Shown: positions 16,536 to 53,846, counted from the first letter of the stretch. The stretch: DNA of 57,694 bases from a virus (UHGV-0135630); one strand, 5' to 3'. Translations and numbers: made by a program. The notes: generated by a model not told the origin, from the sequence alone.

Positions 16536-16583
16536 CGCAATTATCTTATTAAGAAAACAATTTGTTTAAAAGGATAAGAAAAC

Positions 16584-17009
16584 ATGACAGTTATTAAGAA
16601 ACTCTACGATGCCGCAAACGCGGCTCTGGATGTTATTGATGATGAAGTATCAAAAGGCTTTCCTGAACCTGATTGGGCGCATCAGCTACGAAACGCTATC
16701 GCAGAAATGACCCCATCAGATCCAACCCCCGACGAGACAGACTGGCAGCGATTCATCCGTATGTACGCTCAGGAAATAGGTCCAACGCCAACGGCAGAGC
16801 AGGCAATGCTGCTGAAATACTTCAAAGAGGCGGGAGAGGATTTACCAATTGATGACTCAGCATATTGGTTCCACTGCGCATGGCGTAAGTATGACGTGAT
16901 ATTCACACAAGGCATGGGAAGCAAAGATATGGTTGTGTGGCATCTACTCCATATAGACACAGCCGTTGACAGAGTTATTGAACAGTTTTTCCCTAACCAA
17001 GAAGATTGA
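16584..17009 (+). CDS. hypothetical protein
   Basis: 141 aa; motif A palindrome and RBS upstream. Confidence 0.5.
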   Translation: MTVIKKLYDAANAALDVIDDEVSKGFPEPDWAHQLRNAIAEMTPSDPTPDETDWQRFIRMYAQEIGPTPTAEQAMLLKYFKEAGEDLPIDDSAYWFHCAWRKYDVIFTQGMGSKDMVVWHLLHIDTAVDRVIEQFFPNQED

Positions 17010-17064
17010 TCGCCTATTCATAACTAACAAAATAAGTAAACACTAACCACAAAAGGAAAAACAC

Positions 17065-17340
17065 ATGAGAGTTTTAGTTCGAATCGTTACCAGCACTGTC
17101 TATGACGTGTTTCCGCTTTTTATGGTCAAAGTCGATGGCCTTAACGATGAAGAAACTGACGCGCTGATCCAGCGTACTCTTGTTGAATATACAGGTCATG
17201 ACGCTGATTCAGTGATGGTTGATGATGATGGTGTTTGTTGGCATAACGGCAACTGTTGGTACGTAGAAGAGACTCAACAAATCAGTAATGAAGATGCTGA
17301 ACATCTTGAGCGTATTTTAAGCATCAGCACTTTTGAGTGA
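17065..17340 (+). CDS. hypothetical protein
   Basis: 91 aa; AAAGGAAAAACACATG start context. Confidence 0.45.
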   Translation: MRVLVRIVTSTVYDVFPLFMVKVDGLNDEETDALIQRTLVEYTGHDADSVMVDDDGVCWHNGNCWYVEETQQISNEDAEHLERILSISTFE

Positions 17341-17379
17341 GTTTACAGTAAAGTTTATATAAGTTAGTATTTACCTATC

Positions 17380-17559
17380 ATGAAGATTTTTATTGAATAC
17401 TTGTTACTCATCGTTTCAATAGCTTTTGTCATCGACTGCATTTTCACTGGTGTCATTCGTAAAGTCTTTTCCCCGGTGCACGACGTAGTCATAAACGCTT
17501 TGGCTATCGTGCTCGTATTTAATTCAGCATTTGATGTAATCAAAGAGGTGGCAGCATGA
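17380..17559 (+). CDS. small hydrophobic membrane protein (59 aa, not in ORF track)
   Basis: Translated by hand: MKIFIEYLLLIVSIAFVIDCIFTGV...; stop overlaps the next gene start. Confidence 0.3.
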   Translation: MKIFIEYLLLIVSIAFVIDCIFTGVIRKVFSPVHDVVINALAIVLVFNSAFDVIKEVAA

Positions 17560-17891
17560 AGACCATCCCATTCGCGCTGTTGTTTCTTTCTTCGATCGTT
17601 GTGGCCGACACCACTGTTTATCAGTGTGAAATGTCTGTAGCCGACGTTAAGAATGGCGCTCTTACCGACGTCATAAAAGCACCATATGGAGCGATGGTCG
17701 TAGACAGCGGCGACCAGTTCTATGTTGTGCGTGACGATCGAGTGTTGTCATCCCCATATCTCACAAATCGTAATGGCAAATTAACCGGCGTCGGAGAAGA
17801 CCACTTCGTATACAACAAATACAAGGGCTTCTATGGCGTTCACGCTTCTCAGCAAAGCTACCTTTTCGATGACTGCAAGGAGGTTGGGTAA
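17556..17891 (+). CDS. secreted protein of unknown function
   Basis: 111 aa; N-terminal signal peptide MKTIPFALLFLSSIVVA. Confidence 0.5.
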   Translation: MKTIPFALLFLSSIVVADTTVYQCEMSVADVKNGALTDVIKAPYGAMVVDSGDQFYVVRDDRVLSSPYLTNRNGKLTGVGEDHFVYNKYKGFYGVHASQQSYLFDDCKEVG

Positions 17892-18103
17892 TGGCATTAA
17901 CACTGGCAGGTCTGGAAATCGAGAAAACAAGCGGCTACTGGCGTGCTAAGGGTTTCAAGCAGCCTGGCATTCTTGAGCGTCTGGAACGTGAAGATGGGTA
18001 TATCGTCCACCAGCGGCGTGAATGGCGTATGTACGATCCAGAAACAGGAAAACTGACTACAAAAGCCGGAACACTTTGGGGTCTGTTAAAGAAAATACAC
18101 TAA
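17891..18103 (+). CDS. hypothetical protein
   Basis: 70 aa; start overlaps previous stop. Confidence 0.4.
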   Translation: MALTLAGLEIEKTSGYWRAKGFKQPGILERLEREDGYIVHQRREWRMYDPETGKLTTKAGTLWGLLKKIH

Positions 18104-18150
18104 ATGCAAACTGACTGCGGCACGTTCCGCAGTCATATTTCATAGTCGTC

Positions 18151-18682
18151 ACCGCTGACAGCATACACAATCAACTACCGCTGATAGCATATCGAGAGTC
18201 TATCTCACCGCTCACAGCATACTTTACTCGATTTTTTACCGCTGACAGCATACTTAAGACATTGCATGAATAATGTGTACCGGTATGGGTATAACCAGAA
18301 CAAAATTACCGCTGGCAGCATACGAATGTCTGACATATGCCATTAATTACCGCTGATAGCATATCCAAACAAAAATTCCTCAATAAAACACCGCTGACAG
18401 CATACGTTCTATCAGGGAGTAGCAGGCAATAAATGCCTTTCACTACAAGCAATCAGCGCAATAGCAATAGAATGTTAGTGAGCGCAAACCTATATGGAAT
18501 GCACTCTTCGAGGTTAGTAACCACTGGGGAGGTATGACAGAGCATTGAGTGGTGATAGATGATTTACCGCTCACAGCATACGTTCATCTCACTATACCGC
18601 TGGTAGCATATCTTTAACCGTTCACAGCATACTTTTCAGAAAAATAGCCGCTGATAGCATACATTTCACCGCTGACAGCATA
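18151..18682. repeat. iteron array, about 12 copies of ACCGCTGACAGCATA (incA-like)
   Basis: Direct 15-bp repeats with minor variants (GATAG, CACAG, GGCAG, GGTAG) at irregular spacing, immediately downstream of repA. Confidence 0.8.
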
Positions 18683-19777
18683 TCAAAGCAGTTTGAGACT
18701 ATTGGAAAGGATCTCAATCATCTTGATATTTTCAGGCGTCAAATTCTGCGAAAGTTCGGTTATCTTGTTGATAATGTTCTGTTTGGCATCAATTTCCCCA
18801 GCTTTCTCATCTGGTTTTTTGGGTTCGATGTCTTCAGGTTTTGGCGGTGCGACTTTGAGTTTTGGATTGCGGCTGTGAATCTGGATATAGATCGACCGCC
18901 CACGCTTAATCTCGCTGTATTCGAGATAGCCCAAATCTTGGAGAGCTTTTAAGCCGTTACGTATAGTCTGATTCTGCGAGCTGACATTCCTGCTACTCAA
19001 ATTGAGTCGCGCACGCAATCGAGCAAGCGATACCGGCGCAGGCTTGGTTGGAAGACTTTCGATGAAGGTGTACAGAGCCTGTGCTGTTTCTTTGCGTGGT
19101 AGCTTATTGATAACCTTTAACTGCAAAAGAACCTTATGGTCAAAGCGATATAGTTCGGCCAGCTTCGGTTCTGCATAGAACACCACCGTATCTTTCTGCT
19201 CGTTGTAGTCCACGCTATTGATGAGGTGCACCATCAGAAGCGAGATCTTGTTAGAGCCGTCGACGTTCTTTTCTTCATACGTTCTCTGGAAAGACAGAGT
19301 TGTACGCATGATCTTCAAAAGACTGTTTGTAAGCCGGTCGCGGAGTGTTTTGCGGATCTGTGACGATGGATAGCCACAAAACTTAGCAAATTTCGTGATG
19401 CTTAACTCGACACGACCGTTAGGTTCGCCGTATTCTGCCAGCGAACGCACAACGCCCACCCACGTTTTGAAATCATGATCCATGTCGAGACGAGGACCGG
19501 TTATCTTGATATCGGAATAGCCTTCAGAACGGGCTACTTCGAGCTGGACAAGCTCCTTTGAAGCATCGATCTCATTTGGCTTGTTACGTTTACTGTATTT
19601 TGTTCCCTTAAGCGTGGGGACGAACAACCCCAGTCGCATCAACGCAATTGGTTGGACTGTATTGTTGCTATTAGGGACAAGTTCCCCTGTGTACAATTCA
19701 AGGGAACCTTCTTCAAAGTTGTCGATGTTATCTTCTACTTCTTTGTTATTTTTACCTTTTTTATTTTTTGTGGACAT
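18683..19777 (-). CDS. repA: replication initiator RepA (P1/RepFIB family)
   Basis: NSNNTVQPIALMRLGLFVP...YSDIKITGPRLDMDHDFKTW...AQALYTFIESLP...IQIHSRNPKLK recalls P1 RepA; start set to internal ATG downstream of the upstream iterons. Confidence 0.85.
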   Translation of the reverse strand: MSTKNKKGKNNKEVEDNIDNFEEGSLELYTGELVPNSNNTVQPIALMRLGLFVPTLKGTKYSKRNKPNEIDASKELVQLEVARSEGYSDIKITGPRLDMDHDFKTWVGVVRSLAEYGEPNGRVELSITKFAKFCGYPSSQIRKTLRDRLTNSLLKIMRTTLSFQRTYEEKNVDGSNKISLLMVHLINSVDYNEQKDTVVFYAEPKLAELYRFDHKVLLQLKVINKLPRKETAQALYTFIESLPTKPAPVSLARLRARLNLSSRNVSSQNQTIRNGLKALQDLGYLEYSEIKRGRSIYIQIHSRNPKLKVAPPKPEDIEPKKPDEKAGEIDAKQNIINKITELSQNLTPENIKMIEILSNSLKLL

Positions 19778-19797
19778 GTGGACACCTTTGTCATTCA

Positions 19798-19898
19798 ACC
19801 GCTGACAGCATACTTGATTTGCCGCTGACAGAATACCAAAAACAGTTGGCAGCATACGGTGAACCGCTGACAGACTATCAATTACCGCTGACAGCATA
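19798..19898. repeat. upstream iteron set, 4-5 copies (incC-like, part of origin)
   Basis: ACCGCTGACAGCATA and variants overlapping the repA promoter region. Confidence 0.7.
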
Positions 19899-20787: not shown

Positions 20788-20997
20788 AAAATAGCTCTCA
20801 TAGCGTTCTACAGTGATCCTGTCTTATTTTTAGTCATACAGACAAGCAAAGTTGCGCCACAATAAATAGGTATATACTTACTTATAAATTTTGTATATTA
20901 AGGCGCTCGTTTCATTCCTAACATACCGTTATGCATAGTTGTTTACCTCCTCATTGCTCTTAAAATTTGTATCAAAATAACCACAAAGGAAAAACAC

Positions 20998-25541: not shown

Positions 25542-25614
25542 TTTCATTGATAGGTAAGTGCTTATCTATTAACATGGGCCACTATATTTAGTGGCCCTCT
25601 TTATTTGGTGATAC

Positions 25615-27930: not shown

Positions 27931-28036
27931 CATATGGTGGGGGATATCCCCACCTTCTCTTTGATTTGTAAGCCTTGTTTAAACACATAAGATAACAACT
28001 TGTTTAAACGCACCAAAAAAGAAAAAGGAAAAACAC

Positions 28037-29179
28037 ATGTCATATTCAACGTTCCGTTTGGGTGCTAATGATGCAACCAAAGAGCCTATGTTCCTCGGAC
28101 AATCTGTCAACGTGGCACGTTACGATCAGCAAAAATACCGTGATTTTGAAAAGTTGATTGAACGTCAATTGTCTTTCTTCTGGCGGCCGGAAGAAGTTGA
28201 TATTTCGAGCGATCGTATCGACTTCAACACGAAGCTGCGGGACCACGAACGTCACATTTTTCTGAGCAATCTCCGTTATCAAACGTTACTCGATTCAGTT
28301 CAGGGACGTAGTCCAAATGCAACGCTGCTGCCGCTTATCTCTATTCCTGAACTGGAAACGTGGGTTGAAACGTGGTCTTTCTCTGAGACTATCCATAGCC
28401 GCAGCTACACCCACATTATTCGTGGCATGGTGGACGATCCGAGCATTGTTTTTGACGGTATTGTTACGGATGAAGAAATCATCAACCGAGCGATCAGTAT
28501 CTCTGCTGAATATAACAGGCTTTATGGGATGACCTGCGAGCGCCAGTCGTTAGGTGAGAAGGAGTTTGAACGTCTGTACGTAAATGAATATGGCTGGGAG
28601 CCATACCCTTTGCACCGTCAGCTTTTCCGCACGTTGGTGTCCATTAATGCGCTTGAGGCGATCCGTTTCTATGTAAGTTTTGCATGTACGTTTGCCTTTG
28701 GCGAACGGAAGTTGCTTGAGGGTAACACCAAAATTATGCGCTTTATTGCCCGTGATGAAGCTCTGCATTGCGAAGGAACTGAACGCATGATCCGCTTCAT
28801 GCGTACCGGTCGCGAAGGTTTATTGTGGAAAGAGATTGCTGCTGATGAAGAAAACGTCATTTACGACACCATGAAATCAGTCGCCGAACAAGAAATGAAC
28901 TGGGCAGACTATCTCTTCAAAGACGGTTCGATGATTGGTTTAAACGCGGATATTCTCAAAACCTATGTAAAATACCGCACCAATCTGGCTATGAATCGTC
29001 TTGGCCTGAAGGCTTTATTTCCAGAGGTTACCACCGATCCGCTGGTCTGGATGAACAAGTGGTTGTTAACCGACACACTGCAAATTGCACCACAAGAGGC
29101 AGAGCAAAGCACATATCTGGTAGGTCAGATCGATTCTACCGTGGATAAGGCTTCTCTAAGCCAGTTTGCTGACCTGTAA
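28037..29179 (+). CDS. nrdB: ribonucleoside-diphosphate reductase beta subunit
   Basis: 380 aa; di-iron ligand pattern ([15 protein letters not shown]) and NrdB-like C-terminus. Confidence 0.9.
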
Positions 29180-37960: not shown

Positions 37961-37969
37961 GGCGGTTGT

Positions 37970-39890: not shown

Positions 39891-39892
39891 TT

Positions 39893-40507: not shown

Positions 40508-40610
40508 CCAATGCCTTTATTTGAAGGATTGCCTGTTTATTTCTATTTAGTACCTTTTCATTTTTGAAATAATTGCACCATTAAACAAATCACTTCTTAA
40601 TGGTGCAATT

Positions 40611-42296: not shown

Positions 42297-42409
42297 TAGG
42301 TAAATGCTTACTTAATTTATGTAAGAATGTAGTAATTAAACGATAAGAGAAAAACACATGAACAACCTCCATTCATGCCTGATCAACCTATTCTGATGGT
42401 CACATCCAG

Positions 42410-42619
42410 ATGGTCATTAACAGTCATGAGAAAGGCTGGGCTGCGATCGTCCCATGCAAAATTACATACAAGTTGGCGAAAGAAGTTAAAGAGCTTCGAA
42501 ACGCCAGTAGCGAATCGGAGTCTACCAAAGCCGCAATAAACACTCTTATTCGCATGGGGTTCACATGGAACGGTGGAGCTTACTGGCAAGCACCTCAACC
42601 CATTTTATCCGGCAATTAG
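42410..42619 (+). CDS. hypothetical protein (uncertain)
   Basis: 69 aa ORF; a 12-codon mini-ORF with consensus start context lies just upstream. Confidence 0.3.
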   Translation: MVINSHEKGWAAIVPCKITYKLAKEVKELRNASSESESTKAAINTLIRMGFTWNGGAYWQAPQPILSGN

Positions 42620-42799
42620 GCGCCACAAATCCTTCTGCATGAATAAATAAAGGCCATAACTTATGGCCTTAAATAAATTGTTTTCTACCTTTTCTTGTTT
42701 GTGAAAATAACCACAACTAGAAAACAACGGAGTTAAGAATGTCTCGTATTTCCGAAGCACATATGTTCGCCGCTGGCATCCGTATCAAAGGAGAATGAT

Positions 42800-43471
42800 A
42801 TGACCACTATAACCAGAGAAAGCGCGGAGATTAAATCATTCATCAATGGCTTCCTGAGCGACCCGGCGCATGATAACCAATCTTCAGACAGCCTGCTTGC
42901 CAATGTGTTTCGTATCGCACAGGCATCGCTGGAAGCAAAACCAATAGGAGCATTCCACATTGCAGAACAGCAAGTTGACGGCACAAGTGACTACCTCAAG
43001 GATGGAGAATGGCCTATTGATAATGGGACAATTGAAGTATACGCCGTCCCACCAGTGCCAGTAGTACCGGAAGAAAAACCAATGCCTAACCCTCTTAGCA
43101 TGTACGCGGTTGATGCTGTTGCTGCTATTGCAGAGGTGAGAGGCTGGAATGCCTGCCGCGCCGCCATGCTTCAGAGTCAAGATAGTGGCATTAAGGATGG
43201 TTGGATAAGCTGTAGTGAGCAGATGCCTGTAATTGGCGAGCTAAATTGGAGAACTAGTTTTCCTTTGCTGATTACGTGTGAGATGGGCGTTATACCAGCT
43301 TATTACGGCTTTGTGAGCGTTAATGGGGATAAGCATTATGGTTTTATGGAAAGTTTTAAATACGGAGACGATCGCGGCGGCCATCCTCAAACTAATGAAT
43401 ATGGTCTGATTAGCAATGTAACCCACTGGATGCCACTACCAGAACCGCCACAGGAGTCGAAGAGTGAATAA
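42800..43471 (+). CDS. phage protein of unknown function, DUF551-like C-terminus
   Basis: 223 aa; C-terminal THWMPLPEPP pattern; preceded by a 19-codon upstream mini-ORF. Confidence 0.5.
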   Translation: MTTITRESAEIKSFINGFLSDPAHDNQSSDSLLANVFRIAQASLEAKPIGAFHIAEQQVDGTSDYLKDGEWPIDNGTIEVYAVPPVPVVPEEKPMPNPLSMYAVDAVAAIAEVRGWNACRAAMLQSQDSGIKDGWISCSEQMPVIGELNWRTSFPLLITCEMGVIPAYYGFVSVNGDKHYGFMESFKYGDDRGGHPQTNEYGLISNVTHWMPLPEPPQESKSE

Positions 43472-43685
43472 AGCAGAGTTATTTCAGAAAATATCGGCTC
43501 TCGCGACTGAATGCCACGCTATAGCATCTGAGCTTGATGTTGGCGATGAACGAACCGAGATGTTCGAAATATACAGTGTGCTGCGCAATCTCTGTCGGCG
43601 TGGCTACGCCACTCAAGTAGGGCGAATGACTAACCCACTACTCTCAACCTGTGATGAGGATGAGTCGGATGAGGATGACGAATGA
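43464..43685 (+). CDS. hypothetical protein
   Basis: 73 aa overlapping neighbours. Confidence 0.4.
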   Translation: MNKAELFQKISALATECHAIASELDVGDERTEMFEIYSVLRNLCRRGYATQVGRMTNPLLSTCDEDESDEDDE

Positions 43686-44065
43686 CGCATAAATCAGCAG
43701 CCGGAGAGCTTCAGAAGGAAGTCGAAAATACTACCGTTCTATTGGACGATATTTTAAACATTCTCGCGCTTCTTGAGGCTGGCGATTGGTCAGAACATTG
43801 CACTAAAACGGAGTTAGGCGGTCGGCTTGAAAGAGAGATTACACGACTGATTAGCGATGCCCAAAATGATTTGTCACCTGAGCATCTCCCCTGCGATGTA
43901 GTTCTTGTGCCAGGGATGAGGATACACGAAGGCGTCAGAACGAAAACATTATTAACCGCATTACAGAGAAGAGCCGAACTAAGCTCGCGGATAAAGTTGA
44001 TGCCATCCAAAATATTTGATGTCGTCAAATTTACGCCATCGCAACATACTGAGAGAGATAAATGA
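43682..44065 (+). CDS. hypothetical protein
   Basis: 127 aa. Confidence 0.45.
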   Translation: MTHKSAAGELQKEVENTTVLLDDILNILALLEAGDWSEHCTKTELGGRLEREITRLISDAQNDLSPEHLPCDVVLVPGMRIHEGVRTKTLLTALQRRAELSSRIKLMPSKIFDVVKFTPSQHTERDK

Positions 44066-44694
44066 GCACGGTAGCGAAAGATCTCACAGAAGATATTCTC
44101 AATGAAATTATTGCTGGTGCAAATACCTCGCTTGAGCAACTTCTTGCGTTAGCACTGAGAGCCGAACGTCGAGACAGAAATCGTTTTTATGAGCGATTAC
44201 CAGGGAAACGGCCAGATAGATCAGATGAAGAAGGTTGCGATATAGACTACATGGAGCCTTCAGAGATTTATCAACTTGGTAAAGATGACGGCTGGAACGC
44301 TTATCACGATGCTGTGATGAAGTTGGATGAAAAAGTTAAACCTCTTTCTCGACCAGTAGATCACGGTTTCCGCGATAACTGCGAATGCTCTAGTTGCCAG
44401 ACTACGGCCCGTATTTGTTCCGAATTAACAGATAAGCCCAGCCTAATCTACGAAGTTAATGTAGGTGGTAATACATGGGTCGAATGCACAAGAGCTGCAT
44501 ACGTAAGAGCAAAAGATAAGGGTGAATTAACCAGAGTTGTTACCCATCACCCAAATAATGAGCTTAAAGCTCACCAGATTCGAGAACTGGTGAACGAGTT
44601 GCGGGATATTGCGGTTACGTACCACGGAACGCAGCAATTGAGGGAGAAGATTGCCAGAGCAGTGAACAACTCAATTAGATCAGAAAGTATGTAG
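44062..44694 (+). CDS. hypothetical protein
   Basis: 210 aa; followed by hairpin ggccccatttgggatggggcc. Confidence 0.5.
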   Translation: MSTVAKDLTEDILNEIIAGANTSLEQLLALALRAERRDRNRFYERLPGKRPDRSDEEGCDIDYMEPSEIYQLGKDDGWNAYHDAVMKLDEKVKPLSRPVDHGFRDNCECSSCQTTARICSELTDKPSLIYEVNVGGNTWVECTRAAYVRAKDKGELTRVVTHHPNNELKAHQIRELVNELRDIAVTYHGTQQLREKIARAVNNSIRSESM

Positions 44695-44744
44695 CCAATA
44701 CGATAAAATGGCCCCATTTGGGATGGGGCCGGTAACAACTAGCG

Positions 44745-44828
44745 TTATGGGCGCTGGTTGACGTACTCAATGATCGCTTCAATAATTGCGAACATCGGCG
44801 GCACGATTTTGAACAGTAAGTTAACCAT
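44745..44828 (-). CDS. candidate small hydrophobic peptide (27 aa), possibly toxin-like
   Basis: Hand translation MVNLLFKIVPPMFAIIEAIIEYVNQRP; GAGG RBS 7 nt upstream; next to SOS-regulated umuD-like locus. Coordinates approximate. Confidence 0.2.
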   Translation of the reverse strand: MVNLLFKIVPPMFAIIEAIIEYVNQRP

Positions 44829-45132
44829 AACAGGCCTCACTTAGTTTTATCGCGCCTAGCTGCAAATACCTTTGAGCTTGCCTTTGCAGTTGCAATATCT
44901 GTAGTCGCCAGATACTTACGGCACGATTTCGAGTTAAGGTAAGGTTTGAGAGTCACCAAAAACCTGGACTTAAATCTTCTTTGAGAACAACGATGTTTAG
45001 TAAATGGTCATTATTACCTGGTATGACCACTCAACGCTTCTTGATGAATCCAGTACATTCGGTTAATCTTAATTCAGTCGCCAGATACTTATGGCTCAGG
45101 AACAGAGACGCAAACTCTGTTTCCTTTTAAAA

Positions 45133-45158
45133 AGCCCAGCCTAGTCAACTGGGCTTTT
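45133..45158 (+). terminator. rho-independent terminator candidate
   Basis: aaagcccagcctagtcaactgggcttttt. Confidence 0.4.
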
Positions 45159-45456
45159 TAACGTCTGTTTTTTAACCCAACACACCCTCAATACTGCAAC
45201 ATCAGTGTCTTGCAACCTAAGATAGTGTCTGTAGGTTCTTCATGCAAGTGCATAACTCAGTGGATAACTCATGAAGGAAAAAGTAGCTTCCGCGCAATTT
45301 AGACCAGACAAGGTCTTCGCAAAAGTCAACGGAAAGAGAAAAATTTGTTAAAAATAACGTTTGTTGTAATTGTATATATTTATGCCTTTCAATAGTTAGC
45401 ATCTTATTAACATCTTTTTTAAGAGACAGAGTTCAAAAATATATAGCTTTAACATA

Positions 45457-45476
45457 TACTGTATGTATATACAGCA
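45457..45476. promoter_or_regulatory. LexA box TACTGTATGTATATACAGCA
   Basis: Near-consensus SOS box (CTGT-N8-ACAG with TA-rich spacer) about 17 bp upstream of the umuD-like ATG. Confidence 0.7.
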
Positions 45477-45492
45477 TTAAGAGGCGAGTATT

Positions 45493-45882
45493 ATGGGCTT
45501 CCCTTCTCCTGCGGCGGATTATGCTGAGAGCCGTATTTCTCTTGATCAGCACATAATTAGACATCCTTCAGCTACCTACTTCATGAGAGCAACTGATAGC
45601 CATCAGCGTGAGGGAATATTGCAGGGTGCATTGCTGGTGGTCGATTCCTCACTTACCCCGGTTGATGGTTCTCTGCTTGTGTGCGCTATGGAGGGGGAAT
45701 ATCGCGTAAAAAGATACCGGAAGTATCCACGTCAGCATCTGGAGGATTTAAGAACCGGTAAGAAGGAAACATTGCCAAAGGATGATGATGGATGCACGGG
45801 CAGCAATGCCGTGTTTGGAGTGATCACTCACATTATCAACGACGCAAGAAGTGGCGAATTTGATGATTGTCCTGTGATGTAG
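45493..45882 (+). CDS. umuD: UmuD-like S24 peptidase (orphan, no umuC partner)
   Basis: 129 aa; GFPSPAADY N-terminus, Ser in ATDSHQ, Lys in EYRVKR, C-terminal FGVITHIIN; LexA box upstream. Confidence 0.7.
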   Translation: MGFPSPAADYAESRISLDQHIIRHPSATYFMRATDSHQREGILQGALLVVDSSLTPVDGSLLVCAMEGEYRVKRYRKYPRQHLEDLRTGKKETLPKDDDGCTGSNAVFGVITHIINDARSGEFDDCPVM

Positions 45883-45892
45883 GAGAGCTGAT

Positions 45893-45917
45893 TAGGCGGT
45901 GCAATGCACCGCCTTTT
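45893..45917. terminator. bidirectional terminator hairpin between umuD-like and apbC
   Basis: aggcggtgcaatgcaccgcctttttat. Confidence 0.5.
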
Positions 45918-45919
45918 TA

Positions 45920-47020
45920 TCACACTGCGCGGAATGCGATTTCGCCAGGTATTACTTCGCCTTGCCAATACATTTGTGCGGCAACGCGATCTGCGAGGTC
46001 ACGGTAAATAGCAGTAAATTCGCTGTCTGGGCGACTAATAACGGTTGGTGTTCCGTTATCCAGATCTTCACGAAGTGAGATATGAAGAGGCATTTGGCCT
46101 AACAACTGCGTGTTGTATTTCTCTGCCAGCTTCTCTGCACCACCGGTGCCAAAAATTGGCTCGTGATGACCGCAGTTACTGCAAATATGCACACTCATGT
46201 TTTCGACGATACCCAGTACCGGCACTTCGACTTTTTCGAACATCACAATGCCTTTCTTCGCATCGATCAGCGCGATATCTTGCGGCGTAGTTACCACCAC
46301 AGCACCCGTTACAGGAATGTTCTGCGCCAGCGTCAACTGAATATCACCAGTGCCAGGCGGCATATCGAGAACGAGATAGTCCAGATCAGGCCACAATGTT
46401 TCCTGCAACATCTGCATCAGCGCCTTGCTAGCCATCGGTCCGCGCCACACCATTGCATTGTCGTCGGTGACCAGATAACCAATAGAGTTGGTTGCCAGGC
46501 CATGAGACATGATAGGTGCCATGTGAGTACCGTCCGGTGAGGTTGGACGTTGGTTTTCCGCGCCCAGCATGGTTGGAATTGATGGCCCGTAGATATCGGC
46601 ATCCAAAATACCAACTTTCGCACCTTCAGCAGCCAACGCCAGTGCCAGGTTTACCGCCGTTGAGGATTTACCCACGCCGCCCTTGCCTGAGCTTACGGCG
46701 ATAATATTCTTAACGCCATTAATGCCTGGTTGGTTTTTGACGCGCTTAAGCGTGGCAATGTTGTACGACAGCTTCCAGTCAATAGCCTTTGCGCCAGTGA
46801 TACGGAGCAGATCACCACTACATTGCTCTTTCAGGTCTTCAAAAGGCTTATTCCACACAAAAGGCATGATCAGTTCGACATGCAGTGTGTCATCCATCAA
46901 CGCAACATGGTGTAACGCTTTAAGCGTTGTCAGGTTGTGTTTCAGGGTTGGGTGCTGAAAATTAGCCAGCGTACCGGCTACCATTGCTCTCAGGGCATCC
47001 GGCGATTTGGACTCGCTCAT
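45920..47020 (-). CDS. apbC: iron-sulfur cluster carrier ATPase ApbC/Mrp
   Basis: 366 aa; Walker A SGKGGVGKSS; CxxC motif; collinear with E. coli Mrp as recalled. Confidence 0.9.
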   Translation of the reverse strand: MSESKSPDALRAMVAGTLANFQHPTLKHNLTTLKALHHVALMDDTLHVELIMPFVWNKPFEDLKEQCSGDLLRITGAKAIDWKLSYNIATLKRVKNQPGINGVKNIIAVSSGKGGVGKSSTAVNLALALAAEGAKVGILDADIYGPSIPTMLGAENQRPTSPDGTHMAPIMSHGLATNSIGYLVTDDNAMVWRGPMASKALMQMLQETLWPDLDYLVLDMPPGTGDIQLTLAQNIPVTGAVVVTTPQDIALIDAKKGIVMFEKVEVPVLGIVENMSVHICSNCGHHEPIFGTGGAEKLAEKYNTQLLGQMPLHISLREDLDNGTPTVISRPDSEFTAIYRDLADRVAAQMYWQGEVIPGEIAFRAV

Positions 47021-47177
47021 CCCGTCTCCTTTATTTTAATTTGCGCAATTGTCGCCTTGTAGTGTACTCCAGCTACGACATTTAATCATTTATGAGAAAT
47101 GCTGTTATCACATGGCAGACATAAGACCATTTTGTTACTATCAAGCCCCTTTTCACTACAAAGAAGTAATGCCTACT

Positions 47178-49211
47178 ATGACCCAAGTCGCGAAGAAAAT
47201 TCTGGTGACGTGCGCACTGCCGTACGCTAACGGCTCAATCCACCTCGGCCATATGCTGGAGCACATCCAGGCTGATGTCTGGGTTCGTTACCAGCGAATG
47301 CGCGGCCACGAGGTTAATTTCATCTGTGCCGACGATGCCCACGGTACGCCGATCATGCTGAAAGCCCAGCAGCTTGGTATTACCCCGGAGCAGATGATTG
47401 GCGAAATGAGTCAGGAGCATCAGACTGATTTCGCAGGCTTTAATATCAGCTACGACAACTATCACTCGACGCACAGCGAAGAGAACCGTCAGTTGTCTGA
47501 GCTTATCTATACTCGCCTGAAAGAGAACGGTTTTATTAAAAACCGCACCATCTCTCAGTTGTACGACCCGGAAAAAGGTATGTTCCTGCCGGATCGTTTT
47601 GTGAAAGGCACCTGCCCGAAATGTAAAGCGCCAGATCAATACGGCGATAACTGTGAAGTCTGCGGCGCGACCTACAGCCCGACTGAACTGATTGAACCGA
47701 AATCGGTGGTTTCTGGCGCTACGCCGGTAATGCGTGATTCTGAACACTTCTTCTTTGATCTGCCCTCTTTCAGCGAAATGTTGCAGGCATGGACCCGCAG
47801 CGGTGCGTTGCAGGAGCAGGTGGCAAACAAAATGCAGGAGTGGTTTGAATCCGGCTTGCAACAGTGGGATATCTCCCGCGATGCGCCTTACTTCGGTTTT
47901 GAAATTCCGAACGCGCCGGGTAAATATTTCTACGTCTGGCTGGACGCGCCGATTGGCTACATGGGTTCCTTCAAGAATCTGTGCGACAAGCGCGGCGACA
48001 CTACCAGCTTCGATGAATACTGGAAGAAAGACTCTACCGCTGAGCTGTACCACTTCATCGGTAAAGATATCGTTTACTTCCACAGCCTGTTCTGGCCAGC
48101 AATGCTGGAAGGCAGCAACTTCCGCAAGCCGACTAACCTGTTTGTTCATGGCTATGTGACAGTGAACGGCGCGAAGATGTCCAAGTCTCGTGGCACCTTC
48201 ATTAAGGCCAGCACCTGGCTGAATCATTTTGACGCTGACAGCCTGCGTTACTACTACACTGCGAAACTCTCTTCGCGTATTGATGATATCGACCTGAATC
48301 TGGAAGATTTCGTTCAGCGCGTAAATGCCGATATCGTCAACAAAGTAGTGAACCTGGCCTCCCGTAACGCTGGCTTTATCAACAAGCGTTTTGACGGCGT
48401 GTTGGCAAGCGAACTGGCTGCCCCTGAACTGTACAAAACCTTTACTGATGCCGCTGAAGTTATTGGCGAAGCGTGGGAAAGCCGCGAATTTGGTAAAGCG
48501 ATCCGTGAAATCATGGCGCTGGCTGATCTGGCTAACCGCTATGTCGATGAACAGGCTCCGTGGGTGGTGGCGAAGCAGGAAGGACGCGATGCCGATCTGC
48601 AGGCGATTTGCTCTATGGGCATTAACCTGTTCCGCGTGCTGATGACTTACCTGAAACCGGTACTGCCGAAACTGACAGAACGTGCGGAAGCATTCCTGAA
48701 TACGGAACTGACCTGGGATGGCATCCAGCAACCGCTGTTGGGCCACAAAGTGAATCCGTTCAAGGCACTGTATAACCGTATCGATATGAAACAGGTGGAA
48801 GCACTGGTGGAAGCATCCAAAGAAGAAGTGAAAGCAACTGCCGCGCCAGTTACTGGCCCGCTGGCTGATGATCCGATTCAGGAAACCATCACCTTTGACG
48901 ACTTCGCCAAAGTTGACCTGCGCGTGGCGCTGATTGAAAACGCAGAGTTTGTTGAGGGTTCTGACAAGCTGCTGCGCCTGACGCTGGATCTCGGTGGCGA
49001 AAAACGCAATGTCTTCTCCGGCATTCGTTCTGCTTACCCAGCCCCACAGGCACTGATTGGTCGTCACACCATTATGGTGGCTAACCTGGCTCCGCGTAAA
49101 ATGCGCTTCGGTATCTCCGAAGGCATGGTGATGGCTGCTGGCCCTGGCGGGAAAGATATCTTCCTGTTAAGCCCGGATGCTGGTGCTAAACCTGGCCACC
49201 AGGTTAAGTAA
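47178..49211 (+). CDS. metG: methionyl-tRNA synthetase
   Basis: Begins [26 protein letters not shown] (HIGH-type motif), KMSKS present, C-terminal tRNA-binding domain; start moved to the internal Met of the 720 aa ORF. Confidence 0.95.
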
Positions 49212-49233
49212 TTAAACAACCTCTGTTCGCAAT

Positions 49234-49257
49234 GCCCGGCAACACGCTGGGCATTTT
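49234..49257 (+). terminator. rho-independent terminator after metG
   Basis: gcccggcaacacgctgggc + ATTTT. Confidence 0.55.
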
Positions 49258-49370
49258 CATATAGACACAATCCCTCCTGATTTACACATGCCCTAAAACA
49301 ATTTGTTTTCTGTGTTTTGTTATTTGAGATAATAAAGCACATAAGAAAACAAGTTGTTTAGGAGATGAAG

Positions 49371-49613
49371 ATGTTTGGAACAGCAAAAGAAATCATCGAG
49401 AAATTGAAAAACTATCCAGAAGACGAACCCTTACTCATGGTTATGTGGCACAAAGAAGATATTGCTGAAGTAAGGACAGATCTCACTGATGAACAATGCG
49501 TACAGGTGATGCAAAAAATCAGACAATGCCATAACGCTGATGTCGGCGTTAATTGGGAGGTTATATCCACTACGGCGAATGAGTTGTTTCCAAACGGGGA
49601 GAGGGGATGTTAA
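49371..49613 (+). CDS. hypothetical protein
   Basis: 80 aa; motif A upstream. Confidence 0.4.
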   Translation: MFGTAKEIIEKLKNYPEDEPLLMVMWHKEDIAEVRTDLTDEQCVQVMQKIRQCHNADVGVNWEVISTTANELFPNGERGC

Positions 49614-49906
49614 ATATTACTCAATCCTACCAGGTGGCATTGATCAGTTCATCTCATACATCAGAGGAAGATGCTCGCCGATTCATGATCGCAAGCAATG
49701 AGCTGGATTGGATTTCACAAATTGAGTACGGTTGCATAGTTCACGCCGGGTTACAGGATGATGACTGGAAAGATAACTTGCGTCGATATGGTATATCCGA
49801 GGGCGCGATTGCGAACATTCAGAAGGTACTTGATGCAGGCTTTGACTCTGTACATTTTGATTGTGGCGCACCGGTCGTTGAAGGGCTTGAGTGCTGGCAA
49901 TGGTAA
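49607..49906 (+). CDS. hypothetical protein
   Basis: 99 aa overlapping previous stop. Confidence 0.4.
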   Translation: MLNITQSYQVALISSSHTSEEDARRFMIASNELDWISQIEYGCIVHAGLQDDDWKDNLRRYGISEGAIANIQKVLDAGFDSVHFDCGAPVVEGLECWQW

Positions 49907-49942
49907 TCCGGTAATCGCTTCATACTAGATAACGGAGAATTT

Positions 49943-50128
49943 ATGCTTAAAGAAGACTCATATCTACTAAAGGCGCTTGAAATGCGTGGCGTTGAACCTA
50001 CAGTGAAAAACGCTCACGATTTCTACCTTCAGTTTTCGCCAGAGCTGAAACAGCTCATAAATAAATATGGAGTGAATGACTCCAGCGTCAAAGCCATGAT
50101 AGATGATGAATTAGACCATCTCATCTAA
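49943..50128 (+). CDS. hypothetical protein
   Basis: 61 aa. Confidence 0.35.
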   Translation: MLKEDSYLLKALEMRGVEPTVKNAHDFYLQFSPELKQLINKYGVNDSSVKAMIDDELDHLI

Positions 50129-50239
50129 CCAAACCGTTGATAATGGCGGTCATAATTTGATTTTTTTCTATAAGAATCCGTTGATCGCCACTACTCCCCT
50201 TCCATACCTGCAATCACATCCTTAAATATCAATAGGTTA

Positions 50240-51000
50240 TAGTTGTTTATACAAACAAGAAAACAACTGAATAACAGATCAACGAAACGTCAACGCTTTC
50301 ACCCGATTTGGTCTAAAAAATTGACGTTTTCACACATCACTGCTTATACCCGTAATTCTACGCAGCAGACAGCGCCACAGCGTCCAATTTTCACCACAGA
50401 CGACCCAACACACTACCAACAAAAACACACGCTCAAAATCGTTCCCGTTGCGTTACATAACCATATAAACAACTTATTTTCAGGCATAACAAAACAACTA
50501 AATAACACATATTCCATTACCAAAAACAACCAACCTCTTTATGGCAGGCTACCGAAAAGACCCACCTCTTCTTCCCAGGCTACCGGACAACCAACCTAAC
50601 TTTCACAGGCAATCCGAAAACATTCATACGCGCGATACCCACGACACGCCATTACCCAAACAGCGAAGAAACACCAGAATCACTGAAACCCCAACGAAGC
50701 CTGTAACCGCAAGGTTTCTCTCAATCCCAAAAGACACGAAACATAACAATCACGGGAAACGCCATTACCCAATACACGAATAACTACAAAAGCCTTTCAC
50801 ACACTCCAGACAAACAACTCAAACACAATAACGAAAGGAATCGCCCACCTGCCATTACTCCATACACGGAGAAGAACAATCACCAAAACGACGAGAACAC
50901 CCCATAGAAGAACCACCGCAAAACGAACGAAACCACATACACCGACAGAGAGAACAACACACCCAATTCACCAACAGAAATAGTCGCCGCATAGAACGTT
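50240..51000. repeat. A+C-rich, G-poor noncoding region with dispersed GCCATTACCCAA-like and CAGGCTACCG-like repeats
   Basis: Strong strand compositional skew over about 760 bp; ORFs here look spurious. Confidence 0.5.
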
Positions 51001-51189
51001 CTGGTAGGAGTGAGCATTAACGCCTATAGAGAGGTTGAAACAGACAAAACACGAAGAAAACACAACATGTATAGCGAACAAGACAGGTATGTATAAGTGG
51101 GGAGGGAAGGAGGGGTGCCGCCTCCTTTTTCGTATTTATTCAACTCCTGATTTTATCCCCCGTAACACCCCTACGGTCAGCCTTCGGTC

Positions 51190-51335
51190 CATACAGGGAA
51201 AAGGCTGCATCCCGCTACAGAAACGGCTGGGTTGCCTTCGGGGAACGGCTGGAGGTTTTCAGGGAAACGGTCGAGTTGCCTGTGTGGATTTCGGGAAAAG
51301 GCTCGATGCCGGTTCAGGAACGGCGGCGTACCGGT
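51190..51335. repeat. array of about 6 GGGAAACGGCTG-like repeats at roughly 20-30 bp spacing
   Basis: cagggaaaaggctg, agaaacggctgg, ggaacggctgg, gggaaacggtcg, gggaaaaggctcg, ggaacggcggcg. Confidence 0.5.
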
Positions 51336-51687
51336 ATAGCGAGAGGGAGAGTTGCGGCTACCCACCTGTAATGTGCGGGAAGAAGAGAGGCGCTCACGTG
51401 CAGGCGAACTTACTTACCGCTGGATTCCCTCTGAATGCCCAACTACAGCGTAATTGTGCCAGACAGTCAGCGGGTCACAATCGATTTCAGTAGGTTTTCG
51501 GGGAGAGGATTATTCTGCCCACCAGCCATCTTCGGCCACTAAATCAGAATAATGTAAAAAGTGTACTCGATACTGAACCTGAAAACTCACTGCCAAAACA
51601 ACATTCACCGGAATAAAATCCTTTTTAGCCTGTGCGTTATTGCGATAATAACACCAACGAGAAAACAAGTTGTTTAAGGATTGCTTT

Positions 51688-52017
51688 ATGTTTGCAAATA
51701 TCGACATCAACCAAATCAAGAAATTAACTCAAAAAGAGTTTGATCAGTTTTATGAGTTAGAAGGTTGGTCTTCCACTCTGATCAATTCGCGGTGGGTGCT
51801 TGAGCTGATGACTCGTGATGACGCACCTGCTTTGATGATTTGCGACATGGGTGAAGATGCTGACTTTATGGATATGAGCGAATTTTGTGTGGACACATAC
51901 AACCGCAGCCAGAAGTACTACTTCACATGCGATAGCGAAAATGACGTGATTTCTAAGGTCTATCTTCACCTCGTCCAGCATTGGGACGTTCAGGAGTTTC
52001 TTGAAGTATTCGAGTAA
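51688..52017 (+). CDS. hypothetical protein
   Basis: 109 aa from ATG after AAGGA; motif A upstream. Confidence 0.45.
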   Translation: MFANIDINQIKKLTQKEFDQFYELEGWSSTLINSRWVLELMTRDDAPALMICDMGEDADFMDMSEFCVDTYNRSQKYYFTCDSENDVISKVYLHLVQHWDVQEFLEVFE

Positions 52018-52170
52018 CCCCAACCAAAGCCAGCATTGCTGGCTTAATTTCTCTATAGCCGCAGGGAAGAACCTGCATATCGCTCATGCACCTGATCAAT
52101 ATGCTTTGTAGCCGTTTTCTTACTGGTATTATTTACGCCATTGAGAAAACAAGTTGTTTACGGAGTTGTG

Positions 52171-52482
52171 ATGAAAAAATCATTGGTTCTTGGTCTGGAC
52201 AAAGACCAGAAGAGAAAAGAGAAGCCTGCGCTGGTTGCTCAATTAACTTTGCTGGACATCGTTGCCAATGGAACCTCTATTCGTCTGTTCCGTGAAACAG
52301 CGGTGTCTTTCGATAAAAACACCTTTACTCGTTATGTAATGAATGTTCGTCGCCAGCGTGGAAAAGGCTGGGTGGCATTTCAAAGAATGTGGCCGGAACA
52401 TCAGCTCGAACTGGCTTTGATGGAAGTTAACCGCGTGGCCCAGCAAGAGATTCAGAGAGCATCAGTGATGGCAATAGCCTGA
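52171..52482 (+). CDS. hypothetical protein
   Basis: 103 aa from internal ATG; motif A upstream. Confidence 0.45.
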   Translation: MKKSLVLGLDKDQKRKEKPALVAQLTLLDIVANGTSIRLFRETAVSFDKNTFTRYVMNVRRQRGKGWVAFQRMWPEHQLELALMEVNRVAQQEIQRASVMAIA

Positions 52483-52608
52483 TAATGTGCAAGTGGTAAT
52501 TAGTCGACCGTACGACAGCCCCGCCATCCTTACGGGGCTTTTTTGTATTGTAAGTACATACTTACGATCATAGAATATAAAAATAACCAAAACACTACGG
52601 AGAGTGAA

Positions 52609-53004
52609 ATGACCGTTAAACGCGAAAAACTGACAGTTGATGTTTACTATGCCTCTGAAACCGCCGAAGGTAAGAATGTGGCAAAAATTACCGTTGTTAC
52701 GTACAACACCGAAACTGGTGCCGAAGTCCAGGCCAGTACGATCGTGCGTAAAGGTGATGCCTCCGGCGGCGAGTACGCGACTCAATACCAGTCCATTCTC
52801 GATGCAACTGACCCGCTGCTGCTGAAAATCGAGAACTACTTCCGCCAGGTTGATGAAGAGGTGTTTGAAACCATGATGAATATGGTTAACACCGTATTCG
52901 CCTCCAGCCTGAACACCAGCACCACCTGGATTGGCCAGTACGGTCTGCGCATTACCTCTGGCATTCCTGCCGATACCTTAATCCCTGAAAGCGTATTCGC
53001 TTAA
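52609..53004 (+). CDS. hypothetical protein
   Basis: 131 aa from internal ATG with GGAG RBS. Confidence 0.45.
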   Translation: MTVKREKLTVDVYYASETAEGKNVAKITVVTYNTETGAEVQASTIVRKGDASGGEYATQYQSILDATDPLLLKIENYFRQVDEEVFETMMNMVNTVFASSLNTSTTWIGQYGLRITSGIPADTLIPESVFA

Positions 53005-53121
53005 TCCTCTTTAAATGGCGCGCAAACCGCGCCATTTAATTATGCCCGATAACAATTTGTTTTCTGCCTTATCTGATTTGTGAAAATGATTTCACTGAAG
53101 CAACTTAATAAGGAAACCATC

Positions 53122-53496
53122 ATGGGACTTGATATCTATATCGAGACACAGCCTAAAAACGATCTGAATAACGAGGCATCCAGAAAGCAGGTTGCTTACT
53201 TCCGTAAGTTCAATGCGCTCGTTGGGTGGATGGAGCGCAACGTAGGTGAAGTCGAAAATTGTGAGCTTTTAGAATTAACGATGAATGACATTTGTCTTCT
53301 GAAAGCTCATTTGATGCACATAAACGAAAGCAATTGCGAAGAGTACTTGCCTACTCGGGAAGGTTTTTTCTTCGGCAGTCAGGAGTACGACGAAGGTTAC
53401 TGGCATGACGTGGATAAGCTGAAAAAACTTGTGGAAGACCTGATCAGGAACCACGACTTTCACAATAACAGACTGACCTTCTGCGCCTGGTGGTAA
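53122..53496 (+). CDS. hypothetical protein
   Basis: 124 aa from internal ATG with AAGGAAA RBS. Confidence 0.45.
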   Translation: MGLDIYIETQPKNDLNNEASRKQVAYFRKFNALVGWMERNVGEVENCELLELTMNDICLLKAHLMHINESNCEEYLPTREGFFFGSQEYDEGYWHDVDKLKKLVEDLIRNHDFHNNRLTFCAWW

Positions 53497-53498
53497 AT

Positions 53499-53642
53499 AT
53501 GGGCGATTTCAAGAAACGCCTGAAGGAAAGAGCCGAGATGGTCAGAAAGCAAAACGCCTCTTCTGTCATCAGATACGCAAGGCAGTTTAGTCGCAACAAC
53601 AAATCAGTTGAGGAAAAGATCCTTAGCGTAATCGGTCGATAA
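53499..53642 (+). CDS. hypothetical small basic protein (47 aa, not in ORF track)
   Basis: Hand translation MGDFKKRLKERAEMVRKQNASSVIRYARQF...; followed by hairpin aaggccatcagcattggtggcctt. Confidence 0.25.
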   Translation: MGDFKKRLKERAEMVRKQNASSVIRYARQFSRNNKSVEEKILSVIGR

Positions 53643-53846
53643 TTATTAAGGCCATCAGCATTGGTGGCCTTAAATGACCATCCTGTTTCCCGCAGGCTAA
53701 AAACACCAACCTCTTACCTCCAGGCAACCGACAAACCCACCTGTTCCCGTCCGGCTACCGCAACTTTCCACTTTGACGCCTTATTCGTACAACGATAATT
53801 AACACCAACAAGAAAACAATTTGTTATTTACGATAAGGAATTAATC

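Follow-up and report, generated by a model that had tools for sequence, protein, structure and literature searches.

The plasmid prophage P1 uses one repressor, C1, at many scattered operators located at separate promoters of its lytic and accessory operons, and the C1 operator is an asymmetric 17-mer (ATTGCTCTAATAAATTT). On the plasmid RK2, KorA and KorB act at short palindromic operators, OA and OB, which are repeated at many plasmid promoters and in some cases lie near -39; OB is a 13-bp 6-1-6 palindrome and the regulation is tied to partition proteins, KorB itself being of the ParB family. ParG of TP228 and omega of pSM19035 are small proteins whose genes follow that of a short ParA; a site precedes parA, and their sites form contiguous repeat arrays, built from heptads in the case of omega, which controls several operons. 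The sop centromeres of the phage-plasmid N15 are inverted repeats scattered over four sites, some of them in promoters, which are bound by SopB (type Ia) and link partition to phage genes. Salmonella FljA has one known target, the fliC leader, where it reportedly blocks translation and destabilises the mRNA.

The stretch of DNA analysed here (57,694 nucleotides, hereafter the window) represents roughly one half of a phage-plasmid of the SSU5/pHCM2 type; a 20-kb comparison with Escherichia phage Cyrano gave ~96% identity. A palindrome (motif A) with the 13-base core AAACAA-N-TTGTTT recurs here at fixed positions in about a dozen promoters. Like RK2 OB it is a 6-1-6 dyad, but its sequence differs from the RK2 operators and most of its sites are centred at +14; in the lysogen, neither of the two ParB_N proteins of Cyrano is expressed above the floor. 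The scattered arrangement is that of the C1 operators. However, the element is SSU5-like and not P1-like, no C1-like gene is present in the Cyrano or SSU5 annotations, and a P1 C1 operator regulon was rejected because motif A is a dyad of different sequence. The 7-8 bp inverted units of motif A resemble the omega heptads, but they occur as single palindromes at ~20 dispersed promoters, and a ribbon-helix-helix fold of the ParG-like protein of this element is putative. Strict promoter geometry and the number of sites also set motif A apart from the sop centromeres.

Motif A in the window

Scored as the 17-mer AGAAAACAANTTGTTTA at two mismatches or fewer, motif A has 13 matches in the window against 0.08 expected, and none of 100 shuffled sequences reached 13. 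All 13 are intergenic, intergenic DNA making up 17.6% of the window (binomial P ~1.6e-10). The palindrome of the original prediction is therefore real and enriched upstream of genes, and its failure to recognise a described operator agrees with our finding no published description. Each of A, C, G and T occurs at the central base, as is expected for inverted-repeat symmetry, while the promoter-facing arm is lengthened to AGAAAACAA. Conservation is higher in the left arm and the AGA flank than in the right arm, an asymmetry for which a purely symmetric dimer gives no reason.

Nine of the sites (class A) have their dyad centre at about +14 from the inferred transcription start and 12-38 nt from the start codon; three (class B) are centred at about -38 and lie 63-123 nt upstream of the start codon. 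A location 20-40 bp upstream of start codons, as predicted, thus holds for the class-A sites only, and neither for class B nor for one site that has no gene behind it. The predicted positions were all recovered within a few bases, except that the site given at 49285 is at 49295.

The first site (2319-2335, minus strand, two mismatches) is upstream of a cobT-like gene (2352-4460) with a -10 box TACATT at 2302-2307, and its SSU5 counterpart is an exact 17-mer. An exact class-A copy at 16552-16568 (plus strand) precedes a gene for 141 aa (16584-17009); a terminator hairpin, ggcgtccagttggacgcc, with a T-run lies directly upstream, and the -10 box is ambiguous (AATTAT, 16539-16544). The nrdA-nrdB spacer holds a site downstream of a terminator (27990-28006, plus strand, one mismatch), with an additional TTGTTTA half-site 22 bp upstream and the start context AGGAAAAACACATG following at 28026-28039; this site is conserved at the corresponding SSU5 position (L005 20225). 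Two further class-A sites on the plus strand are found at 38221-38237, upstream of a TciA-like gene (38261-38686), and at 38950-38966, an exact copy with CACAAT at 38934-38939 as -10 box, followed by AGGAAAAACACATG and the gene 38984-39553.

At 42670-42686 (minus strand) a class-B site with its dyad centre at about -38 adjoins a terminator hairpin and is separated by 19 nt from an extended -10 box, TGtGAAAAT (-10 at 42703-42708). In this promoter the half-site AGAAAACAA at 42719-42727 (plus strand) stands where a class-A site would be (+5 to +13), ahead of the ATG at 42746. A complete pair is present further on, where the class-B site 49295-49311 (minus strand) lies upstream of TGaGATAAT (-10 at 49328-49333) and shares this promoter with the exact class-A site 49344-49360 (plus strand); the centre of the latter is 51 bp from that of the former (49302), and an RBS and the gene 49365-49613 follow. 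A second half-site AGAAAACAA (50258-50266, plus strand), preceded by TTGTTTATACAAACA, stands at the head of a non-coding stretch of ~800 nt that is poor in G and T. Within this stretch is the site with no gene start behind it (50466-50482, minus strand, two mismatches), which is conserved in all lineages (SSU5 90746; L031, L034, L050). Half-sites had been predicted near 42747 and 50268; they are those at 42719-42727 and 50258-50266, and the near-full sites 42670-42686 and 50466-50482 had been missed.

The remaining sites are the exact class-A copies 51660-51676 (plus strand; extended -10 TGcGATAAT at 51644-51649, ATG at 51688) and 52144-52160 (plus strand; extended -10 TGgTATTAT at 52127-52132, gene start at 52171), the class-B site 53049-53065 (minus strand), which comes after a terminator hairpin and is followed after 19 nt by TGtGAAAAT (-10 at 53082-53087), and the class-A site 53811-53827 (plus strand), with GATAAT at 53794-53799 and the gene 53847-54329.

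The start context was also predicted correctly: AGGAAAAACACATG is present in four exact copies and in eight at two mismatches or fewer, against 0.68 expected, and seven of the eight are at real gene starts. Its supposed coupling to motif A is weak. Three of ten genes with this context are behind motif A (28037, 38261 and 38984) and six are behind a second palindrome, motif B (4556, 11990, 15458, 17065, 20998 and 37466); the fixed distance of motif A is to the -10 box and not to the ATG.

Promoter geometry, conservation and expression

The spacing of motif A is fixed to a sigma-70 -10 box, often TGn-extended, rather than to the start codon. Among 132 non-redundant motif A contexts sampled across the SSU5-like family, 43 have a -10-like hexamer that ends exactly 20 nt upstream of the dyad centre and 12 have one that ends 21 nt upstream, 55 in all, whereas any one position has 2.5 such hexamers on average. 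In a mirror-image class (30 cases) the -10 box comes 19 nt past the palindrome, and some promoters carry sites of both classes 51-52 bp apart. The -10 boxes in the window read GATAAT, TATTAT or GAAAAT, often with TGn. The repeated module runs from a terminator or weak -35 through gCCTTTTc, 8 nt, the -10 box, 10-11 nt, the putative operator and the RBS to the ATG, and the whole ~60 bp are conserved. A simple sigma-70 scan did not call the motif A promoters because their -35 boxes are weak.

Folding of the leaders containing motif A gave no hairpin (MFE -0.6 to -4.9 kcal/mol); these leaders are A/U-rich and, with z-scores of -0.4 to +1.6, none is more stable than shuffled controls. An intrinsic terminator or RNA hairpin is ruled out by this lack of a stable stem-loop. 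Two known promoter types were rejected as well. The late, Lpa-dependent promoter of P1 combines a -10 box with a palindrome centred near -22, away from the +14 and -38 centres of motif A, and the T4 MotA middle promoter has its box TGCTTtA centred on -30 and separated from the -10 box by 11-13 bp, whereas the class-B arm TTGTTTTCT ends 16 nt before the -10 box; neither MotA nor AsiA is annotated.

Corresponding promoters of SSU5, of a distant Klebsiella lineage and of more than 100 IMG/VR loci also carry motif A, with diverging flanks, and it is found within unrelated flanks as well. Information content is 1.2-2.0 bits in the palindrome columns, a single column being below 1.7, and does not exceed 1.2 bits in promoter columns outside the 17-mer. 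Motif A is confined to Enterobacteriaceae lineages; a relative from Moellerella (Morganellaceae) has no dispersed motif A and possesses a distinct conserved promoter element of its own, CCTAGCTCCCATA-N-TATAAT. These data support the view that motif A is a single family of cis-elements, located at promoters throughout the element and kept across the SSU5-like family.

In RNA-seq of the Cyrano LF82 lysogen the prophage background has a median of 9.8 (PMC9928086, S1 table), and first genes behind motif A include CYRAN_1 (7.1), 47 (7.8), 58 (5.7), 85 (7.0), 87 (7.1), 101 (7.5), 108 (5.7) and 110 (6.7) (PMC9928086). Altogether, 12 of 15 first genes are at or below ~1.3 times the background, values that lie near the noise floor. 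Those above it are parA, the helicase gene and CYRAN_111, and the parA operon, including the gene for the ParG-like protein, is 5-10 times over background. Silence of the motif A genes would fit an activator-dependent promoter as well.

Possible readings of motif A and candidate binders

The original prediction offered either an operator or a dedicated promoter class. Centres at +14 and -38, pairs at 51-52 bp and silence in the lysogen favour the operator of a repressor, and we see an about even chance that motif A is a double-stranded DNA operator through which a putative element-encoded repressor holds its target genes off in the plasmid state. We infer the transcription starts, action as DNA, repression and the identity of the binder from these patterns. 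An element-encoded dimer, or dimer of dimers, would bind motif A; at about +14 it would block open-complex formation or promoter escape, and at about -38 it would occlude the -35 region. Paired sites 51-52 bp apart would be on the same helix face, and the units bound there would probably cooperate. Some 20 transcription units of the whole element could in this way be kept off in the plasmid-prophage state; within the window these would include small accessory genes, cobT, nrdB and tciA, and in the rest of the element terS, parA and the helicase operon. Expression of parA despite a perfect-core site is at odds with such a role.

The predicted single regulon thus stands as one family of cis-elements, to which a regulator can be assigned as a candidate only. 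The arm centres of motif A are 7-8 bp apart. Judged by the operators of MetJ, omega and Arc, this spacing is more easily accommodated by a beta-ribbon (ribbon-helix-helix) protein than by a helix-turn-helix dimer, and we therefore put forward as first candidate the ParG-like protein, whose gene directly follows parA and lies beyond the window. In both Cyrano and SSU5 a perfect-core site precedes the start codon of parA by 35-40 nt (outside the window), the Klebsiella lineage has several half-sites upstream of the par operon, and the protein matched 797 PLSDB plasmids. The Moellerella relative retains the ParG-like protein with an identical KSRT(V/M)S strand, yet lacks dispersed motif A.

A second candidate trans factor, encoded in the window at 56396-56920 (minus strand), is an FljA-family protein (PF03614, E 5e-81, full-length match) that models as two tandem Sm/Hfq-like domains. 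It could bind motif A as RNA, since transcription from class-A promoters would make the motif the first ~20 nt of the leader, immediately ahead of the Shine-Dalgarno sequence, and binding to AGAAAACAA-N-UUGUUUA there would block translation and destabilise the mRNA; we regard this as unlikely. All lineages with motif A that were checked carry the gene, the lowest values being 34% identity and a profile match of 48 bits, whereas the Moellerella lineage, without motif A, has only a very remote homologue. Expression of the gene in the lysogen parallels that of a CI repressor. The gene is also carried by Klebsiella plasmids and Klebsiella is without flagellin, so repression of host flagellin is not its sole job there. 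The unstructured, A/U-rich leaders and the better conserved left arm and AGA flank fit an RNA site, as does the CAAGTTGT core, shared with a Salmonella/Citrobacter flagellin leader (fliC or fljB, not distinguished), where it directly precedes the RBS. However, that match covers 8 of 12 positions and, by our own estimate, would arise by chance in a 60-nt leader with a probability of ~0.17, the E. coli fliC leader has no match, and the promoter of the FljA-like gene itself has no motif A. A single-stranded RNA site gives no reason for exact self-complementarity when no hairpin forms. Class-B sites, in opposite orientation, lie upstream of the -10 box and hence are not transcribed by that promoter, and others have no 5' leader at all, being after terminators or between convergent genes (SSU5 87631); unlike the fliC target, these and the orphan sites are unable to serve as leaders. 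That the real job of the FljA-family protein is control of ~20 phage transcripts through this leader element, in place of the one target known for FljA, seems rather unlikely to us.

Motif A might alternatively be a positive element, part of a dedicated promoter class that depends on an activator or sigma-like factor encoded by the element; an activator bound at -38 could, for instance, stand in for the weak -35 box, and its absence from the lysogen would leave the genes silent. Promoters that a sigma-70 scan does not call, conservation of the module as a whole and the separate Moellerella element are all in its favour, but most sites are downstream of the start, where activators are not known to act, TGn-extended -10 boxes need neither a -35 box nor an activator, the annotations of Cyrano and SSU5 contain neither an RNA polymerase gene nor a sigma gene, and a dyad on both sides of the core promoter is the classic layout of a repressor; we consider it decidedly unlikely. 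It is quite improbable that motif A is the site of a host factor or part of a passively copied promoter cassette without its own binder. The module has clearly spread by duplication, because the flanks are alike, and its restriction to Enterobacteriaceae would agree with this, but the palindrome is far more conserved than the flanks and persists where they are unrelated, and we know of no E. coli regulator with such a site. Very improbable, finally, is a dispersed centromere, in which the palindromes, like the scattered centromeres of N15, would mainly be partition sites, here for a type-Ib ParA and its small partner, any effect on transcription being secondary. The site upstream of parA, the sites off promoters and the spread over the whole element point in that direction; nevertheless, partition does not require strict geometry to the -10 box, the fold of the partner protein is putative, and type-Ib centromeres are clustered repeats, unlike ~20 sites found mostly one per promoter.

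Implications for SSU5-like phage-plasmids

E. coli, Salmonella (including S. Typhi with pHCM2), Klebsiella and Enterobacter commonly harbour phage-plasmids of the SSU5/pHCM2 type, on which papers report antibiotic resistance genes; we found no publication on the decision of these elements between lysis and the plasmid state. A repressor operator would explain why strong TGn-extended promoters are silent in the lysogen. With ~20 promoters, motif A defines a regulon and is a usable bait for its regulator. The case would be more unusual if the binder were a partition protein or an Sm-like relative of FljA, and, were control of the phage transcripts by the FljA-family protein true, Salmonella FljA would be a domesticated relative of a post-transcriptional master regulator of phage-plasmids.

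Motif A and its setting in the window

The palindrome proposed in the original prediction is real. AGAAAACAANTTGTTTA, motif A, has 13 matches with at most two mismatches in the window against 0.08 expected, and its core is a 6-1-6 dyad (AAACAA-N-TTGTTT) whose centre tolerates all four bases. All 13 sites are intergenic, in a window of which only 17.6% is intergenic (P about 1.6e-10). The predicted coordinates were correct to within a few bases, but two near-full sites (42670-42686 and 50466-50482) had been overlooked, and what had been taken as half-sites are copies of AGAAAACAA at 42719 and 50258. The predicted start context AGGAAAAACACATG is also enriched (8 matches vs 0.68 expected, all but one of them at gene starts). 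However, its proposed coupling to motif A is not supported: among ten genes sharing the (A)AAGGAAAAACACATG context, it follows motif A in three and a different dispersed palindrome, motif B, in six. The start context is a feature separate from motif A.

Across the 20 kb that were compared (36000-56000), the window shares 95-97% identity with the Escherichia phages CMS-2020a, Cyrano and PhiR41_1. Cyrano (OV696614) lives as the plasmid prophage in E. coli LF82; Salmonella phage SSU5 and Klebsiella phage-plasmids are more distant relatives. Alignment with the Cyrano annotation shows that the window matches Cyrano ~41,000-101,300. It contains an integrase, an HTH repressor, cobT/cobS-like genes, DNA polymerase III alpha, T4-like genes of recombination and nucleotide metabolism, repA and its iterons, a FljA-family gene (56396-56920) and many small genes without assigned function. 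Outside the window are the late structural operon, parA, the helicase-primase operon and the ParB-like genes. The repA gene (18683-19897, minus strand) is bordered on both sides by iterons, with 16 or more copies of ACCGCTGACAGCATA (18151-18682 and 19798-19898); plasmid replication presumably originates here and copy number is presumably controlled from here. At 9769-10187 (minus strand), a full-length match to the cspA thermoregulator (Rfam RF01766, 185.7 bits) points to a cold-shock protein gene plus leader in a stretch where Cyrano is unannotated.

Motif A is most densely clustered at 49365-54329, where the small genes all lack an assigned function and match PHROGs only, one of them with a DUF5983 C-terminal domain. 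The genes that sit between the conserved promoter modules are not the same in the window, Cyrano and SSU5, and therefore the modules may double as points of cassette exchange. Within this cluster, ~800 nt (50240-51131) are CA-rich on the plus strand, with very little G and T, and hold no convincing ORF. The stretch runs from the half-site promoter (50258) through the site at 50473 to a strong terminator (51104-51131), and could represent a long, unstructured non-coding RNA. In Cyrano, the ORFs annotated at this place have 5 and 14 normalised counts in the lysogen, at or near the prophage background (median 9.8; PMC9928086). Past the terminator, about six imperfect 21-22-bp repeats (GGRAAMGGCT...) at 51170-51330 may form a second origin or a protein-binding array. 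Related GTTTCCCGAAAC repeats occupy the corresponding location in a Moellerella relative, where they form an iteron-like array and were rejected as promoter sites.

Promoter architecture and the repressor-operator reading

We aligned 132 non-redundant motif-A contexts, drawn from IMG/VR loci as well as from the window, Cyrano, SSU5 and a Klebsiella lineage. The position of motif A is tied to the sigma-70 -10 box and not to the start codon. At class-A sites, the spacing from the end of a -10-like hexamer to the dyad centre downstream is exactly 20 nt in 43 cases and 21 nt in 12, where chance would give 2.5 cases per position; the centre-to-ATG distance ranges from 12 to 38 nt. A conserved A located 13 nt upstream of the class-A centre is likely the transcription start, which would place the dyad centre at ~+14. 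In class B, a 19-nt spacer separates the palindrome from the -10 box downstream, giving a centre at ~-38; here the orientation is reversed, so that the AGA-extended arm faces the promoter in both classes. The class-B boxes and several class-A boxes of the window are TGn-extended (TGtGAAAAT, TGaGATAAT, TGcGATAAT, TGgTATTAT). One promoter (-10 at 49328-49333) carries sites of both classes 51 bp apart, and another (-10 at 42703-42708) combines an upstream full site with a half-site at +5 to +13. A terminator hairpin immediately precedes many of the modules. Information content is 1.2-2.0 bits across the palindrome (all columns but one at least 1.7) and 1.2-1.45 bits in the AGA flank; the remaining promoter columns do not exceed 1.2 bits. 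The palindrome is thus better conserved than its surroundings, indicating selection on the palindrome itself beyond the copying of a cassette.

Taken jointly, four features give motif A the usual layout of a repressor operator. It is a dyad; its sites flank the core promoter on both sides, mirrored and about five helical turns apart; some lie past terminators or between convergent genes, where there is no leader; and the promoters, being TGn-extended, should be strong unaided. A role as RNA hairpin or terminator was rejected because the leaders are unfolded: none of eight was stabler than its shuffles (z -0.4 to +1.6).

In RNA-seq of the LF82 lysogen (PMC9928086, S1 table), first genes behind motif A have 5.7-12.9 normalised counts, near the noise floor, against a prophage background median of 9.8. 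Exceptions above background are the parA operon (about 50-90), the helicase gene (21) and CYRAN_111 (26), and plasmid-maintenance and toxin-antitoxin genes reach 50-7000 (PMC9928086). The lysogen expression agrees with a repressor operator. Silence of the motif-A genes alone would also fit promoters that depend on an activator, but the dyad centre at +14 speaks against this, as activators are not known to work from such a position.

Candidate binding proteins

Our first DNA-binding candidate is the ParG-like protein whose gene (Cyrano 29975-30334) directly follows the short parA, beyond the limits of the window. A disordered basic tail is followed by KSRTMSLEDEYF...TRSDVIRAAI, which we read from sequence as a putative ParG/omega-type ribbon-helix-helix, although no tool bore out the fold. 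The 7-8 bp spacing between the arm centres of motif A fits proteins of this type. About 740 plasmids carry the protein with at least 90% conservation, and its gene is expressed in the lysogen and carries a perfect-core motif-A site in its own promoter. Against this candidate, a Moellerella plasmid retains the ParG-like protein yet lacks dispersed motif A. The FljA-family protein of the window (PF03614, E 5e-81) might instead bind motif-A leaders as RNA; FljA reportedly acts on the fliC leader. The gene of the FljA-family protein is found in every motif-bearing lineage, including those of Klebsiella, a genus without flagellin, and motif A shares the core CAAGTTGT with the flagellin-gene leader of Salmonella and Citrobacter. 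However, that likeness extends to just 8 of 12 positions, and neither class-B nor orphan sites can serve as leaders; the E. coli fliC leader has no motif A. Motif A stays constant down to about 34% identity of the FljA-like protein (from 100%) and to 48% identity of the ParG-like protein. In Moellerella, the sole lineage free of the motif, the ParG-like protein is retained and the FljA homologue is very remote, and co-variation is compatible with both candidates. A 188-kb Klebsiella plasmid carries a truncated homologue, beside IS elements, that is uninformative.

The HTH repressor encoded beside the integrase (1403-1789, minus strand) is expressed in the lysogen but is unlikely to bind motif A, which its divergent control region lacks. 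That region holds a perfect GGTAAGTGCTTACC, the best copy of motif B, which makes motif B the likelier target of this repressor. That SSU5 lacks the repressor does not settle the matter, as the lysogeny module of SSU5 may have been lost. Motif B, TA(A/G)GTA-NN-TACTTA, often followed by yCTAT, has 19 matches with at most two mismatches in the window against 1.5 expected. Its sites (1821-1834, 4479-4492, 11887-11900, 15411-15424, 17033-17046, 17360-17377, 20867-20884, 25551-25566, 30268-30281, 35103-35118, 37318-37335, 42297-42314 and 52551-52564) occur upstream of T4-like DNA-metabolism genes and may form the regulon of the HTH repressor. ParB_N proteins, considered as lysogenic repressor by analogy with KorB, are unlikely, being at the expression floor in the lysogen. 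Further candidate binders are the Cra-like protein (17891-18103) and the homologue of CYRAN_37. Pfam found no domains in the small lysogen-expressed proteins CYRAN_117, 116, 113, 112, 102, 97, 34, 109, 81 and 43.

Distribution and relation to known systems

A whole-genome scan of Cyrano added two sites upstream of terS, one upstream of parA and one upstream of the helicase operon, with none inside the 28-kb late operon, which terS heads. At Cyrano 54-97 (outside the window), the two sites, 25 bp apart, are followed by a terminator-like hairpin (AGAGCGCatggaCGCGCTCT and GTGTGTTTT) and then terS; the late operon may be under both repression and antitermination. SSU5 has ~20 sites at corresponding places with diverged flanks, and the distant Klebsiella lineage CP027615 has 17 in 50 kb. 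Motif A is present in all 50 IMG/VR loci retrieved via the FljA-like gene and all 78 retrieved via the neighbouring helicase, where the contig covers the small-gene cluster. Among the matches listed in an IMG/VR scan for the 17-mer, SSU5-like contigs are mixed with chance single matches. The syntenic SSU5-like phage-plasmid of Moellerella (NZ_CP093251) has no motif A. It relies on other repeated promoter elements and has 10 copies of CCTAGCTCCCATA(g/a)TATTTATATAAT together with TAAGTA-N6-TACTTA, so the promoter and operator vocabulary is lineage-dependent.

As to its kind, we take motif A to mark a dispersed operator regulon of a plasmid prophage, similar to the C1 operators of P1, the KorA/KorB operators of RK2, the pSM19035 omega system and the centromeres of N15. 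In tests of sequence and geometry it failed as a P1 C1 operator, a P1 late promoter, a T4 middle promoter and a terminator. In the literature searched we found no paper printing the 13-mers and no link of SSU5 to an operator; a prior description may exist in a 2026 bioRxiv preprint that deals with a promoter mechanism of a phage-plasmid. The phage-plasmid family bearing motif A is widespread and clinically relevant, and the motif offers a ready handle for finding the control circuit of this family.
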